Program-made: the position numbers | Shown: in pieces, positions 23,001-29,000 of the stretch | Layout of the letters: each line of letters starts with the position of its first letter | How positions within the stretch are numbered: the first letter of the stretch is position 1 | From: Sulfurimonadaceae bacterium | GTDB lineage: Bacteria; Campylobacterota; Campylobacteria; Campylobacterales; Sulfurimonadaceae | DNA length: 36,162 nucleotides | Direction: 5' to 3' | NCBI GenBank assembly: GCA_041571435.1 | Contig: JBFFUI010000020.1 | Coordinates: 1-36,162 of the forward strand

Positions 23001-26000
23001 GTTATGAAGCGACACAGAAAGCCGCCATTAAAGCGCTGCACTTCTTTATCGAGAGCGGTGAGATAGACACCGCTTATATCGAAAGTTTCGGCACTATCTT
23101 ATCCGATGAGAATCTGGGTCTTGAGTCAAAGGCCTTTATGCTTGAACTGCCGACACTCTCGGTCTTGATGCAGGAACAGGAACAGATCGATGTTGTTCCG
23201 CTCTCCAATGCGCTCTCCGCGGTCAAAAAAGCACTTGCCACGCGTTATAAAGAGCCTATGCTGGCACTCTATGCAAAGTATCACAAACCTGACAACAGCG
23301 GACTTGATGCACAGAGCATGGGCGAAAGGGCGATCAAAAACGCCGTCTTGAACTATCTGATAAGCCTTGAAGACGATGCGATCAACAGACTCTGTTTGAA
23401 ACAGTATGATGAGAGTGTGACCATGACAGACCGTATCGTGGCGCTTGATCTTCTGGAAAATTTTGTACCTGACCTTGCACAGGATCGTTTGCAGCACTTC
23501 TATGAACGCTATAAAGAGGATACCCTGGTCATGAACAAGTACCTCTCTGTCTTGTCCGCTTCGGAGCGTGAAGGGACGATTGATCGCGTACAGGCGCTTC
23601 AAAACGATCCTGTCTATGATGTCAAAGTCCCCAACCTTGTCCGCGCACTCTTAGGTGTCTTCGCACGCAATGCCGTCGCTTTTCATGCCCCTACGGGACA
23701 CGGTTATGCTTTCTTGGCGGAAAAGGTTATCGAACTCGATGCGATCAACCCTCAGATCGCTTCGGGATTGACGACGGCATTCAGAAGTTACAGTCGTCTC
23801 AATCCGGAAAACAAAGAGCTGATGAAAGAGGCTCTGGAGATGATCCTCAATGAGAAAGAGATCTCGGCTAACGTTTATGAGATCGTCCAAAAAATCCTCG
23901 ACTAAACACCTCTTCCGACGCTGTGTGAACCCACTGCACTCACAGTGCAGAAGGTAAACGACCGTATAATCTGCTTCCAACGATAACACTGACAGACCAT
24001 ACTATCCCACCAACATGCTGCGCAATGGGCAATATGGGTAGAAACTCTATAGGTTCATCAAAATAAGATATATTATTAGGTGAATATACGACTTGTGATA
24101 AGAATGTGATTGTTTTGCGATAAAGTTTTATTGTCGTAAAAGTAACTGTTTCTGAAATCAAAGGAGAAAATATGGCTAGGATCGTTGTTATGGGTGGTGG
24201 TGTCTCAGGACATACTGCCGCAACATTTGCCGCAAAGTGGCTGGGCAATGGGCATGAGGTGGTTGTTGTGACACCGAATGCAAAATGGAACTGGATCCCC
24301 TCTAACATCTGGGTCGGTGTCGGCGAGATGTCAAAAGAAGAGGTGACCTTTGACCTTGCGCCTGTCTACAAAAAGGCGGGTATTACCTACAAGCAGGCGA
24401 AGGCTGTCTCTTTGAACCCGGAAGGCAGTGAGAGCGAAGCAAGCCCTTTTGTCACGATCGAATATACCGGTCAGGGCAGAGAGGGTGAGATGGAAGATGT
24501 CACGTATGACTATGTCATCAATGCAACGGGTCCAAAACTTAATTTCGGTGCAACACCGGGTCTGGGTGAGGGTTCTGAGCTGGGTGAACATACGGTCTCT
24601 GTCTGTACGGCTGATCATGCGGTTCATGCGAACGAAAAGCTTCAGGAATCTATTGAGAAGATGAAGAACGGTGAACGCCAGACATTCCTGATCGGTACCG
24701 GTCACGGTATGTGTACCTGTCAGGGTGCCGCCTTTGAGTATATCTTCAATGTTGAGCATGAACTTAAAAAAGCCGGCGTCCGTCATATGGCCGATATGCA
24801 GTGGATCTCTAATGAGTCATTCCTCGGCGACTTCGGTATGGGCGGTCTGCACATGAAGGTGGGCGGGTATGTCGTCAGTTCAAAGATCTTCTCCGAGTCG
24901 CTTTATGCGGAGCGCGGTGTCGACTGGACAGTCGGTGCACACGTCTCCAAAGTTGAAGCGGGCAGAGTCGAGTATGAACTGCTTGACGGTTCAACAGGCG
25001 AAAAGAGATTTGACTTTGCGATGCTGATCCCGCCGTTTGCAGGTGTCGGTCTTAAAGCGTATGCAAAAGACGGTACAGACATCACCGACACCGTGTTCGC
25101 GCCGAACGGCTTTATGAAGGTCGATGCAAATTACGCTGCCGGTGGGTATGAGAACTGGAAAGCGTCTGACTGGCCGCGCACCTATCAGAACCCGACATAC
25201 AACAACATGTTTGCCTGCGGTATTGCTTTTGCACCGCCGCACATCATCTCCAAGCCGATGAGCTCACCAAACGGCACGCCGATCAACCCGACACCGCCGC
25301 GTACAGGTATGCCTTCGGGTATTATCGGTAAAGCGGTCGCACACTCCGTTTGTGACCTTATTACACAAGGAGATGGCGCGCATCTTCACGAAGCATCCAT
25401 GGCAGAGATGGGTGCCGCCTGTGTCGCTTCGGCAGGAAAAGGTCTTTTGACCGGTACGGCGGCAGCGATGACGGTCTACCCGGTTGTTCCTGACTTTGAC
25501 AAATACCCTGGTACAGGCCGTGATACGGATTATACCTTCGGTGAGATCGGTCTTGCAGGCCACTGGATCAAACATATTCTTCACCACATGTTTATCTACA
25601 AAGCCAAACTCAAACCAGGCTGGACACTTATCCCTGAATAGGGGTGGCGTCTATAACAGTCAGAAAAAATTTAAAAAGAGAAGGATAGAACATGGCAAAA
25701 GAAGAAGAAGTCAACTTTGCTCGTAATGATCAATCAAACACCACTATGATCCCAGGCAGGTTTGCCCGCGCGATGCGCACAAATCTTATCTGGCAGTTTT
25801 TCCGCTTTGTGGTCATCAACCTTAAGATGCTGGTCGTCGTCAGCAAAAGTCACTAAGGCACATTCAGGGCTCTGCCCTGGGTCTTTGTTTAAGCCAATCG
25901 CTTTGGTTTAGACAAATACCTGCACGGTCTCTCTCGCAAAGGTTTTATAGATGGTCTTGGAACTGTTGAAGTATCCGGATGAGCGTATCCGGCTTATTTC

Positions 26001-29000
26001 GGGTAATGTCCGATATTTTGATGAATCGCTTCAAAATATCATTACCGATATGGTCGATACGATGAAGGCGAATGGGCTTGACGCGCTGAGTGCGATACAG
26101 ATCGGAATCCAGTACGCTGTCGTCGTGATCAAACACGGCGATGCGTACAAGCCCTATATCAACCTCCGTATCATTGGCAAGTCCGGCGAGATTACCGAAA
26201 CAGAGCGGACACCCTACTATGAGAAGATAAGCGTGGATGTCCCGCGTTATGACAAGATCAAGATCTTTTATGAAAACGAGAAGGGCGAAGCACAGTATGC
26301 CGACCTTGAAGGTGGTCTCTCCCGCGTTATCCAGCACCAGTTGGACTACAACTACGGCAGTACCTTCGTCGACAGGGTTGACAAAGAGACCCGGCAGCGC
26401 ATCGGCGATCACCTTCCAGAAGGGCTGGTCACCAGCAGCAACAGCAGCTGTCCGACCATCTTCTACAGAGACTATATAAAGCGGGGCTATAAGTATGTGA
26501 TGCTGGCCGTATGGTTTAGCTTTATAGTGCCGTTCTTCACCGATGACGCCGCTCTGCTTGAAAAGCTGTTCCTATTCGACAAAATAGCACTCGGCAGCGT
26601 GCCGTTTTTGGTGCTTGCCTACGCGACCTATGCCTATTATGAGTCGGCGAAGTATAAGCAGTGCACCAGTTGTCAGACCGGCAACATCATCGGCACGGCC
26701 GGATTTGCTCTGTTGCAGTGGCTCATACTGAACGTTGTGACCTTTTTCTGGATCAGTATCTGAAAACGATCTTTTTTCTGAAACCTCTCTAAATCTTCCG
26801 ACTTAGATTTCATATCGCATATTCTCCCATCGAAGCTTCAGTATGATGATGGTATTGATTTCAGGAGATATGATGAAAAATGTACTGTTGGCACTAATCA
26901 CGGCGATGCTCTTTTTAGGCTGTGCAAACGAAGATAGTATCGCGGTCAAATCGAAGAGTGTTGTCGGAGCATCGCTTGAGGGTCTTGTTCTCAGCGACCA
27001 GCATGGTGTATCACACTCTCTTGCATCCGATACGAAAAGAGTTGTGTTCGCCTTTTCAAAAGATATGGGCCATCTGAGCAACGACTTTTTTAACAAACAG
27101 GCACCGAATTTTCTGGCGGAACACGATGCGGTGTTTATTGCAGATGTCAGCGGAGCGCCTTCGTTGATCAGAAGTATGTTTATCATGCCGGGGCTTCGGG
27201 ATTTCAAACATACCGTACTGGTGATCGACGATGAGAGGACGGCCGCAAGCTATCGCATCGATACCAACAGTAAACAGCTGCTGATTCTGGATGTCGACAA
27301 TTACATCATCAAAGATATCCATTTTGCGGCCACACAAGAGGAATTGCTGACCGCCTTGTAGACCATGACGGCCGATGTAGAGCGGCGCCGTTCTTTCTCT
27401 CTTTTGACCGTTTTCAGAGCATTAGTTTACTGAGCTAACCCCTTTTAAAGTTGAACTGTCCCATTATTAGAAAATTGTTAATAAAGGCTGCATAACAGTA
27501 TGGAATATCTCACTCTTTTTTTCACGGCACTCATCGAGCTCTCAAATGCGATGTCACCTTATATACTCTTCGGTCTTCTCTTTGCCGGGATTTTACATGA
27601 AGTGGTTCCCGAGACTCTGGTGACCAAACATCTGGGAAAGGAGAGTGTCGGCTCCGTTGTCAAATCGACCCTATTCGGTATTCCTCTACCGGTCTGTTCT
27701 TGCGGGGTGATCCCTCTGGCGACCAGTATCAAAAAGAGCGGGGCAAGCAAGGGGGCGACGCTCTCCTTTTTGATCTCAACGCCGATCACCGGTGTGGATT
27801 CGATCCTGGCGACGTACGGAATGTTCGGCTGGGTCTTTACCCTCTACCGTGCTTTGACCTCGATGGTGATCGCGATGGCAGCAGGAATAATGACCAATAT
27901 CCTGGACAAAGAGGAAGAACAGCCTAAACCGCTCTTTACGGCTGCACCGACAGGCGGGTTTTCGATGAATGCACCGCTGAATGCAGCACAGAAAGAGGAA
28001 AAAAGCTGTTGTTCAAGCGGTTCTTGCAGCGAAGAGAGTAAAAAGTTCTCACTGAAAAGGGCAGCCCGTTACGCCTTTATTACGCTGCTCGGCGACATCG
28101 CCAAACCGCTTTTCTGGGGCCTGGTCATCGGGGCGCTTATCACGGTTGCGATACCGCAAGACCTGAGCGATATTCTGATCGAGTATTCGTGGCTCTCCTA
28201 CATCATTGTCATCGCTATCGCTGTACCGATGTATGTCTGTGCCACCGCGTCGCTGCCGATCGCCGCCGGACTGATGCTCTCCGGGGTGAGTGCCGGTGCC
28301 GCCTTCGTCTTTTTGAGTGCCGGTCCGGCGACCAATACGGTGACGATCGGCGTGGTCAAAAAGATGCTCGGTACCCGTTCGCTCTATATCTATTTGGGTA
28401 CGATTGTTGCAGGTAGCATCCTTTTCGGCCTGGGTCTGGACTACATCTTTGATATCAGTTCGATAGACCCGAAATCCCTAGTCCACATTGATGAGGAAGC
28501 GGGTCTGATCGCTATAGGAAGTTCTGTTGTATTGTGGGGGTTCGTCGCTTATTTTATCGCGGAACCCTATGGCAAAAGGGTGCTTTTAAGCAGTAGATGA
28601 CTGCAGGTTCCAGTTTCCCTTTTTCCTATCAGGGTCTGAGCAGCTGTTTATAACGTGCTCTGCTCTCTATCATGATGAGTACATTGAAGAGCAGCAGCAC
28701 GGAGGCTCCGGCCATGGCGGAAGGATCCAGAAAAAGGTGGGCCAAGAAGGCGTTTAGCATGACCGGCATCAATATCACTGCCATCAGGGCAACATATTTA
28801 TTGAGCAAAAATGCGATTCCGGCGAGGATCTCAACGATCGCGACAAGCTCCATCAGATAGCCGCTGTGTGACAAGGCGGCCAAAAAAGCACTCATGCCGA
28901 ATGTATGGTGCTGCAGTTCGATAAACCCAAAAAATTTATTGGTGCCGAAAACGATCAGCATGATACCTGCCATAATATGGACAGCCATCAAAATTTTCTT

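Follow-up and report, generated by a model that had tools for sequence, protein, structure and literature searches.

Why should a bacterium that already has a normal peptide deformylase (PDF) carry a second gene annotated as one, close to a sulfide:quinone oxidoreductase (SQR)? We addressed this question in a window of 36,162 nucleotides, the stretch of contig JBFFUI010000020.1 from a Sulfurimonadaceae bacterium that was analysed as a whole. A first-pass annotation had proposed that the second protein is a catalytically dead deformylase fused to a membrane domain, acting as an accessory of SQR. The two open reading frames that it named, of 489 and 270 amino acids and both on the forward strand, were confirmed at 24172-25641 and 25951-26763, and the second is organized as follows.

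25951..26763, + strand: pseudo-deformylase with a three-helix membrane domain, 270 aa (Pfam/homolog alignment, model, Foldseek, dN/dS)
25951..26415, + strand: dead PDF-fold domain, residues 1-155, bearing the modelled SQR-docking surface (homolog alignment, complex model)
26449..26454, + strand: Cys167-Pro168, ahead of membrane helix 1 (178/184 and 179/184 homologs)
26464..26760, + strand: three membrane helices with hydropathy peaks at 188, 221 and 259 (hydropathy, model)
26662..26673, + strand: Cys238-x-x-Cys241 within YxxCTSCQxGN, where membrane helix 3 begins (183/184 and 184/184 homologs; modelled helix 236-268)

Residues 3-148 matched Pfam Pep_deformylase (E 9.5e-29), the protein fell below all NCBIfam PDF cut-offs (76 versus 104 bits for TIGR00079), and it shared 30% identity with the genome's own PDF. 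The proposed deformylase fold with a helical membrane part was borne out by a model with pLDDT 94 and Foldseek TM scores of 0.87-0.90 on the target. Residues 1-155 share the fold of type 1B PDFs (PF01327, TIGR00079; H. pylori 2ew5, T. maritima 1lme; Z 23.7, rmsd 1.6 over 145 residues) together with the structural residues N71, E85, R99, Q128, D132 and G136. The fusion differs from these enzymes by its added membrane domain and by the loss of motifs II and III and part of motif I. Motif II reads ERTPY in place of EGCLS with its metal-binding cysteine, motif III reads HQLDY in place of HExxH, and motif I (GxGxAAxQ) has become LDALSAIQ, with a glycine at position 45 in 21 of 184 homologs. The metal ligands and catalytic glutamate are thereby substituted (T87, the variable H129, Q130, Y133). 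As the annotation had stated for fewer sequences, HExxH and EGC were absent from all 184 distinct homologs, while the other PDF of this genome (contig C1) retains EGCLS and QHEMDH. The ribosome-binding helix of true PDFs is no longer basic in the fusion (3.5 K/R and 3.6 D/E versus 4.9 and 1.7), its positive charge having been lost. Purifying selection acts on both the PDF part (dN/dS 0.03) and the membrane part (0.055); a pseudogene was ruled out by the low dN/dS and the intact reading frames.

Automatic annotation names the homologs peptide deformylase, and no prior description of the fusion was found in the literature searched. In the ESM Atlas the whole 270-aa protein matched only its own Campylobacterota clusters. 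The available part of PMC12690207 describes inactive or type 3 accessory PDFs of S. aureus and S. pneumoniae with altered motifs I and II, which resemble the fusion in accompanying an active PDF as an additional copy whose motifs are altered; the fusion also lacks HExxH, carries a membrane domain and has a partner in the model. The words 'Campylobacter' and 'transmembrane' do not occur in that available part of its main text.

The annotation had also counted three invariant cysteines. This stands for C241 and, with one exception, for C238, but C167 is not invariant, since six of the 184 homologs lack it (in a 42-row set below 60% identity the counts were C167 37, C238 41 and C241 42). The N-terminus and the helix 2-3 loop lie on the basic side, presumably cytoplasmic. 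The membrane domain had no convincingly shared Pfam family and no PDB sequence match, its fold matches were generic three-helix bundles only (Z up to 11.4), and residues 158-270 gave no usable match in the ESM Atlas. DsbB and VKOR are four-helix, quinone-binding bundles in which a membrane helix begins with a CxxC and a loop cysteine lies on that side too. The fusion likewise has a membrane helix opening with a CxxC and a same-side cysteine, but it has three helices and its cysteines are predicted on the cytoplasmic side; it had no sequence match to DsbB/VKOR, and neither occurred among the 50 fold matches listed for the membrane domain, modelled within the whole protein. One genome (G192) encodes a stand-alone 98-aa membrane domain with the CxxC, downstream of an SQR and a small gene and without the modelled docking domain. 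It was the only whole one among the matches examined; 14 other matches, of 60-209 aa, were read as fragments of the fusion.

Upstream of the fusion lie the SQR gene and two further features.

24172..25641, + strand: sulfide:quinone oxidoreductase, putatively type IV (SqrD-like), 489 aa, with catalytic Cys145, Cys183 and Cys417 and an extra Cys181 (solved relatives, model, alignment)
25692..25856, + strand: conserved 54-aa gene encoding an amphipathic helix with a WQFxRFxxINxKM core (locus survey, dN/dS 0.047)
25862..25882, + strand: stem-loop 3′ of the 54-aa gene (pattern scan)

Solved SQRs form homo-oligomers and are not known to contain a second kind of subunit. The SQR encoded here differs from them in a shorter C-terminus, which corresponds to residue 404 of 430 in 3hyv and stops some 25 residues before that of type I SQRs, in insertions near 226-235 and 354-379, and in being accompanied by two extra genes. 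That its solved relatives are SQRs was confirmed (best 3hyv, E 5.3e-40), and its model superposed on type I SQRs with Z 39-40 and rmsd 2.1-2.4 over about 400 residues. C145, C183 and C417, aligned to 3hyv, were invariant in 49 aligned SQR rows. It shares the fold, the three catalytic cysteines and the FAD site with Aquifex 3hyv, Acidithiobacillus 3t31 and C. tepidum CT0117, the last as cited in the accessible part of PMC4584964, which also states that type I SQR is absent from these bacteria. The type IV assignment would follow from motifs shared with a near-identical-looking Sulfurovum sequence labelled 'Type IV Sqr' (supplement of PMC13609358) rather than from a typed reference tree.

The 54-aa gene, which the first-pass annotation did not mention and which is new here as a member of the SQR unit, lay downstream of SQR at 54 of 55 loci and then at 36 of 40 further loci, and it accompanies SQR more closely than the fusion does. 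It was present in 17 of 61 genomes, all 17 SQR-positive, and its dN/dS again indicates purifying selection. No match to the protein was found in Pfam, NCBIfam or the PDB. It is probably a small SQR subunit, and because the SQR ends short of its type I relatives, it may supply a membrane helix; comparison with SQR tails in the PDB gave no match, so the idea of a split-off helix is an argument from length and amphipathicity. Across 37 adjacent loci, stable folds were found 3′ of the small gene (mean -16.5 kcal/mol, with a U-tail in 13), suggesting that the stem-loop is a weak terminator or an mRNA-protecting hairpin. A promoter scan gave counts at chance level (4 versus 4.9). The expression tables of two Sulfurovum studies each contained a 'def' row that was not assignable to the fusion, and those of PMC10066037 (searchable files) and PMC9948710 contained none.

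We surveyed 201 genomes, 117 with an SQR of this kind and 84 without. The fusion was found in 66 (70 copies, 9 families), all of which had the SQR, and in none of the 84 SQR-negative genomes. However, the claim that it tracks one SQR subgroup exactly failed, because 51 of the 117 SQR genomes lacked the fusion when profile searches were included, a piece being present only in G192. Hence SQR functions without the fusion in many lineages, and the dependence runs in one direction and is optional rather than exact. Among 49 genomes with an SQR at least 75% identical, five had no fusion, and genome G186 has an SQR 82% identical and no fusion. The annotation had stated that no fusion accompanies a more distant SQR at a cut-off of 1e-40; of the 14 copies in family f16, 13 fall below that cut-off, and these sit beside SQRs of 70-73%, in line with the annotation's own caution about divergent copies. 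Adjacency to the SQR gene held for 52 of the 70 copies, which lie less than 1 kb downstream, with the qualification that the 54-aa gene intervenes and that 18 copies are elsewhere (11 of the 18 belong to family f18; the surroundings are mostly housekeeping genes). The block of SQR, small gene and fusion is retained while the flanking genes differ between families. Kinship inflates the co-occurrence of fusion and SQR.

Support for SQR binding came from a modelled three-chain complex, which scored 0.66 against 0.00 for the best of three controls and fell to 0.00 when SQR was replaced. In the calibration, from whose set-up the three-chain job with its own alignments differs, 116 of 157 solved complexes attained the score mark, as did 2 of 215 mismatched pairs; the test was also passed by 7 of 44 neighbours picked blind. 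The runs shared at least 74% of contacts, with partner pLDDT at least 79. In the model, the fusion docks on SQR residues 216-274, 361-366 and 442-452 through its dead PDF domain, not its membrane part, and the confidently placed residues of the interface include no cysteine.

Conservation was then compared on the two sides of this predicted interface. On the fusion side, R21 (107/109), R73 (101/109) and F/Y135 (100/109; hydrophobic in 106) are conserved in the fusion family only; 82 true PDFs have variable or charged residues there. R21 and R73 were retained in 20 of 20 listed copies distant from an SQR gene. On the SQR side, interface columns separated fusion-bearing from fusion-lacking genomes more than other columns did (mean difference 0.24 versus 0.10, taken over variable columns), with a permutation p of 0.001 in which kin are not independent. 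The combination F217, G255 and G447 occurred in 41 of 42 fusion-bearing and 9 of 43 fusion-lacking genomes; since this signature maps onto the tree as mostly one gain and a few losses, the p-values overstate the case. R73 was lost in all eight pairs, from one lineage, whose SQR has Q216, a modelled contact. Paired covariation at 14 variable listed contacts was not significant (p 0.11); across nine settings, interface enrichment among the top covarying pairs had p 0.002-0.07, or 0.03-0.22 if shifting was confined to the fusion side.

The proposal that the dead deformylase is an SQR accessory is thus supported by the one-way dependence (66/66), the retained gene block, the complex model against its controls and conservation on both sides of the interface. 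Also in its favour are the purifying selection, the uncharged ribosome helix and the CxxC membrane domain downstream of SQR in G192. Counted against it, besides the SQR genomes without a fusion, the copies elsewhere, the weak covariation and the interface free of confident cysteines, are the lack of a docking domain in G192 and the nine fusion-lacking SQRs with F217, G255 and G447. We consider it probable that the 270-aa protein, anchored in the membrane, serves type IV SQR as an optional accessory subunit, and its presumably cytoplasmic cysteines may take up or sense the sulfur product. The sequence shows that a duplicated deformylase has lost its metal site; its fold, kept in the model, would now be a docking domain that is predicted to grip SQR, for which conservation provides independent support. 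Three predicted membrane helices would anchor the fusion beside SQR and place the CxxC and Cys167 at the surface of the membrane that also faces the docking domain. There they would most likely form a thiol/persulfide site taking over or sensing sulfur freed by SQR, through which product release or SQR activity might be tuned. Within the accessory-subunit reading, this role for the cysteines has roughly even chances, the remainder going to metal binding or to a part in structure only. The 54-aa protein would be the older, near-obligate partner, probably adding a membrane helix. More speculatively, and with considerable doubt, the type IV SQR of Campylobacterales may comprise three subunits: the flavoprotein, a 54-aa helix completing the quinone-facing anchor, and the dead deformylase with a CxxC/Cys sulfur relay that sets where and in what form the oxidized sulfur leaves.

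Alternatively, the fusion might bind SQR while its cysteines coordinate metal, as Zn or as an Fe-S cluster, and switch SQR as a redox, sulfide or metal sensor, rather than carry sulfur. All three cysteines lie on one membrane side, some copies adjoin a MerR-family regulator, and the six rows without C167 have also lost Y235 and G244 (6/6 each) and mostly G248, so that C167 and the CxxC look like one site. However, the CxxC is kept without C167 in five of these six rows and in G192, which suits a dithiol better than a three-cysteine metal site; no conserved fourth ligand was evident in the 184 homologs, and no metal-binding family was matched (the best, FeoB-associated Cys-rich, was weak at E 1e-4). 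We regard a metal sensor as unlikely.

Distinctly unlikely is an assembly factor that holds new SQR at the membrane for FAD loading or folding and then departs, perhaps working at the ribosome like its ancestor. SQR segments 224-226 and 355-360, poorly ordered when SQR is modelled alone, border the modelled interface, the hairpin ahead of the fusion suggests its lower expression, and a helper is compatible with optional presence; but the helix for ribosome binding no longer carries a net charge, the near-invariant cysteines would be left unexplained, and SQRs 71-82% identical exist without the fusion.

The fusion might instead never contact SQR, being a thiol-redox or sulfur-stress protein of the membrane that shares its regulation, or a neighbour by descent. 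The 18 copies elsewhere point this way, as do kinship and the blind-picked neighbours that passed the complex test; in Sulfuricurvum and for some second copies, the neighbours of the fusion include a MerR regulator, an AhpD/CMD-like protein and, in one case, a protein resembling DsrE. The loss of score on replacing SQR, the family-specific conservation on both interface sides and the absence of the fusion from SQR-negative genomes make this reading more improbable again. Very improbable is a surviving deformylase or other hydrolase with a rebuilt active site, despite the automatic names, the activity of some motif-deviant type 3 PDFs (available part of PMC12690207) and the conserved Y89 and Y133 at the former site: two of three ligand positions are retained in 1 of 184 homologs, the glutamate position in 3 others and HExxH in none, the replacements vary except for the two tyrosines, which would fill the pocket, and the genome already has a normal PDF.

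As far as the available part of PMC4584964 goes, the dominant sulfide oxidizers of vents, redoxclines and sediments are Sulfurimonas and its relatives, and type IV is their most conserved SQR, its working being described there as unresolved. If SQRs, regarded as single-subunit enzymes, here have two unrecognized partners, the expression, assay and modelling of type IV SQR would change, and there would be a handle on the release of its sulfur product. Judged by their motifs, such 'peptide deformylases' should not be counted as deformylases. Pseudopeptidases serving as scaffolds, in which dead metallo-hydrolase folds are reused for protein binding, are described in the available part of the review PMC11266112, where the word 'deformylase' is absent; the dead PDF domain, as modelled, would be a like reuse of a fold for binding and a new fate for that of deformylase.

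The fusion of a peptide deformylase (PDF)-like domain to a membrane domain is encoded downstream of a sulfide:quinone oxidoreductase (SQR) gene, and between the two lies a small gene that is absent from the first-pass annotation. The locus is laid out as follows:

24172-25641, + strand, SQR gene (ORF, 489 aa)
25692-25856, + strand, small gene (ORF, 54 aa)
25862-25882, + strand, stem-loop after the small gene
25951-26763, + strand, fusion gene (ORF, 270 aa)

On the 3′ side of the fusion (26843-28600, + strand), but only in close relatives, come genes for a 172-aa protein that matched no family and for a Cu/Zn efflux permease of the SO_0444 family. 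A histone-like ORF of 117 aa, rich in Lys and Ala, lies at 29195-29548 (+ strand).

Residues 3-148 of the fusion match Pfam Pep_deformylase and fall below all NCBIfam deformylase cut-offs; the one other PDF match in the genome, a 176-aa protein, is 30% identical to it. Motif definitions were taken from PMC12690207, and homologs were compared in a pool of 184 distinct long sequences (fragments shorter than 235-240 aa excluded). The earlier claim that HExxH and EGCLS are lost was borne out: none of the 184 carries HExxH or EGC, and the genome's other PDF has EGCLS and QHEMDH. At the old active-site positions the metal-binding Cys is mostly Thr or Ser, the first His is His, Arg or Gln, the catalytic Glu is Gln or Lys and the second His is Tyr; one row has two of the three ligand positions and three others have the Glu. 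Scaffold residues are retained (N71 and R99 in 184/184, E85 and Q128 in 183, D132 in 182, G136 in 181). An AlphaFold2 model built on a 109-row alignment reached pLDDT 94, and Foldseek and VIA matches for residues 1-155 are PDFs (1lme, Z 23.7, rmsd 1.6 over 145 residues). Six close relatives gave dN/dS values of 0.03 for the PDF domain and 0.055 for the remainder, with dS near saturation, which indicates that this is not a decaying gene. Judged by its sequence, the deformylase domain is catalytically dead; some motif-deviant PDFs are active, and none of those described in the accessible portion of PMC12690207 lacks the entire site. That portion also assigns a ribosome-binding role to a PDF helix, whose equivalent is neutral in the fusion and basic in true PDFs.

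The C-terminal part contains three predicted hydrophobic helices (peaks at residues 188, 221 and 259), for which family, PDB-sequence and fold searches returned no family, solved-sequence or distinctive fold match. Basic residues are grouped ahead of the first helix and in the loop linking the second to the third, a pattern predicting that the PDF domain and both cysteine sites (Cys167 and the CxxC) share one side of the membrane, presumably the cytoplasmic one. Three cysteines had been described as invariant; this held for C241 (184/184), nearly for C238 (183/184) and not for C167 (178/184). All six rows without C167 have also lost Y235 and G244, and five of them retain the CxxC. A CxxC at a helix start together with a loop Cys is an arrangement that we take to be reminiscent of DsbB/VKOR, as a lead only.

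The neighbour was correctly recognized as an SQR: the solved structures that match it are SQRs (3hyv at E 5e-40), fold comparison gave Z 39-40, and C145, C183 and C417 (SQR numbering) are invariant in 49 rows. The modelled SQR chain stops at the equivalent of residue 404 (of 430) in 3hyv and residue 411 (of 434) in the SQR from Acidithiobacillus. It is a putative type IV SQR, by motifs shared with one Sulfurovum sequence labelled Type IV in the supplement of PMC13609358 and by a statement in PMC4584964 that these bacteria have type IV and lack type I SQR. An extra cysteine, Cys181, lies beside catalytic Cys183 (MCTC; SQR residues 181-183, 24712-24720), and most of the distant SQRs have Ala or Gly-Ala in its place; in one SQR (L128, G059:C32) Cys183 is Tyr and Cys181 is retained. 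At two loci (L047, L097) a molybdopterin oxidoreductase, probably polysulfide-reductase-like, follows the SQR block. The study genome also has a second, distant SQR-like gene (L107, G000:C24:8956-9510; 31% identity over 209 residues).

Among 201 genomes of the order, in which kin are not independent, SQR was found in 117 and the fusion in 66 (70 copies in nine families; one copy split, one truncated by contig ends). All 66 fusion genomes have SQR and none of the 84 SQR-negative genomes has the fusion. Fusion presence varied with SQR identity: 44/49 at 75% or more, 21/36 at 70-74%, 1/17 at 60-69% and 0/15 below. As 51 of the 117 SQR genomes lack the fusion, the proposal that it tracks one SQR subgroup exactly fails; the apparent exactness came from the E-value cut-off and the sample. 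A membrane-domain profile run over these 51 and four other genomes matched, among the 51, in G192 alone, where SQR and the small gene are followed by a 98-aa three-helix protein with CTGC and without a deformylase domain (L048:4551-4847, C59). In a 301-genome sample of the phylum, fusion matches were confined to this order, and the two largest families gave no strong match (f11, 0/124; f25, 90 genomes, one E 2e-4 match with stops).

The adjacency to SQR reported in the first-pass annotation applies to 52 of the 70 copies, which lie less than 1 kb downstream; the remainder are elsewhere, and the small gene intervenes. At the named loci this was so for 9 of 13 copies, the four exceptions being Sulfuricurvum. 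The SQR-small gene-fusion block is kept amid differing flanks. In family f18 the fusion lies outside the block, among housekeeping genes, and is still retained, in 8/9 such mapped loci beside what we take to be recR. Other displaced or second copies (L011-L014, L068, L070, L071) adjoin genes for a MerR-family regulator and an AhpD/CMD-like protein, and once (L068) a DsrE-like gene. Six displaced Sulfurimonadaceae copies form one clade, and two near-identical neighbourhoods (L011, L012) occupy two contigs of one Sulfuricurvum assembly, through duplication or a mixed bin.

SQR, the small protein and the fusion were modelled together with ESMFold2 on alignments compiled for this analysis. The complex score for the fusion was 0.66 (runs 0.60, 0.71 and 0.66), and the best of three controls, SQR replacement included, scored 0.00; the mark is reached by 116/157 solved complexes and 2/215 mismatched pairs, rates that are only rough for a three-chain job on such alignments. 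Contact agreement across runs was at least 74% and partner pLDDT at least 79. No SQR-PDF complex appears among the titles of solved or fold matches listed for either protein, so a score owed to a memorised structure is unlikely. In the model the fusion would dock on SQR through its PDF domain, with confident contacts at residues 14-22, 54-55, 73-76, 104-116, 132-142 and 159-163 of the fusion and 216-217, 225-243, 253-256, 270-274, 326-327, 361-366 and 442-452 of SQR. SQR residues 361-366 lie in a loop that aligns in sequence with the capping loop of type I SQRs, and that we take to be the counterpart of this sulfide-gating element.

The interface was checked against data not used as labels by the structure model. 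Compared with 82 true PDFs, the fusion-specific positions R21, R73, Phe/Tyr135 and a hydrophobic residue 106 all fall on the modelled interface; Y89 and Y133, also specific, are in the old active site. Both R21 and R73 are retained in 20/20 displaced copies. Between SQRs of 42 fusion-bearing and 32 fusion-lacking genomes (leaving aside 11 distant SQRs, two paralogues and G192), columns at the interface differed more by fusion status than the other columns did (0.24 vs 0.10, counting variable columns; p 0.001). The combination F217, G255 and G447 of SQR occurs in 41/42 fusion-bearing and 9/43 fusion-lacking sequences. Several points count against the interface: on the tree the pattern is largely one gain with some losses, nine fusion-less SQRs retain the combination, and paired covariation at the listed SQR-fusion contacts was not significant (p 0.11; 98 pairs, about 51 effective) and only modest overall (of the 200 top-ranked pairs, 9 vs 1.4 lie at the interface; p 0.002-0.07 depending on the setting). 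In the one clear case, R73 is lost in 8/8 pairs with SQR Q216, all in one family.

At the sequence level the fusion has a dead site, retained fold residues, conserved cysteines, a record of selection and a one-way dependence on SQR. It is probably an optional accessory subunit of SQR. G192, in which the PDF domain is absent, speaks against an essential role of the docking domain. The cysteines would most likely serve as a thiol/persulfide site, a reading favoured because the CxxC persists in rows that have lost C167 and, in G192, even without a PDF domain, and because displaced copies adjoin thiol-redox genes. Live alternatives are a metal sensor and an assembly factor. Searches of the open full-text literature returned nothing combining deformylase, sulfide quinone and Sulfurimonas or SqrD, Campylobacterota and operon, none on inactive membrane PDFs that concerned an SQR-linked fusion, and no partner proteins among the matches listed for SQR capping loop or accessory proteins; "deformylase" was absent from the best 15 of 58 Campylobacterota/sqr papers. 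The pseudo-enzyme tied to the putative type IV SQR is real and conserved, and apparently hitherto undescribed. Related background is found in PMC10045233, PMC4288042, PMC11266112 and PMC13209566.

The small gene would be a second unrecognised SQR partner. It follows SQR in 54/55 loci, the sole miss being at a contig edge, and in 36/40 further loci (of the four misses, two fall at contig edges and two are real), and is present also beside SQRs of only 50-55% identity. It was found in 17 of 61 genomes, every one of which has SQR; of the 44 without it, 35 were screened for SQR and lack it. Among metagenome loci (the best 80 of 403, biased to close kin), SQR was found in 67/68 with sufficient upstream DNA and the fusion in 57/71 with sufficient downstream DNA. 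Its dN/dS is 0.047. From these gene patterns, the small gene is the older and tighter SQR partner of the two. Position 31 of its product is Cys in 56/63 rows and Asn in the clade of the study genome. Two genomes (G002 and G182; L132 and L133) have a second, divergent paralogue of the putative type IV SQR, accompanied in both cases by a small gene that is likewise divergent but not by the fusion.
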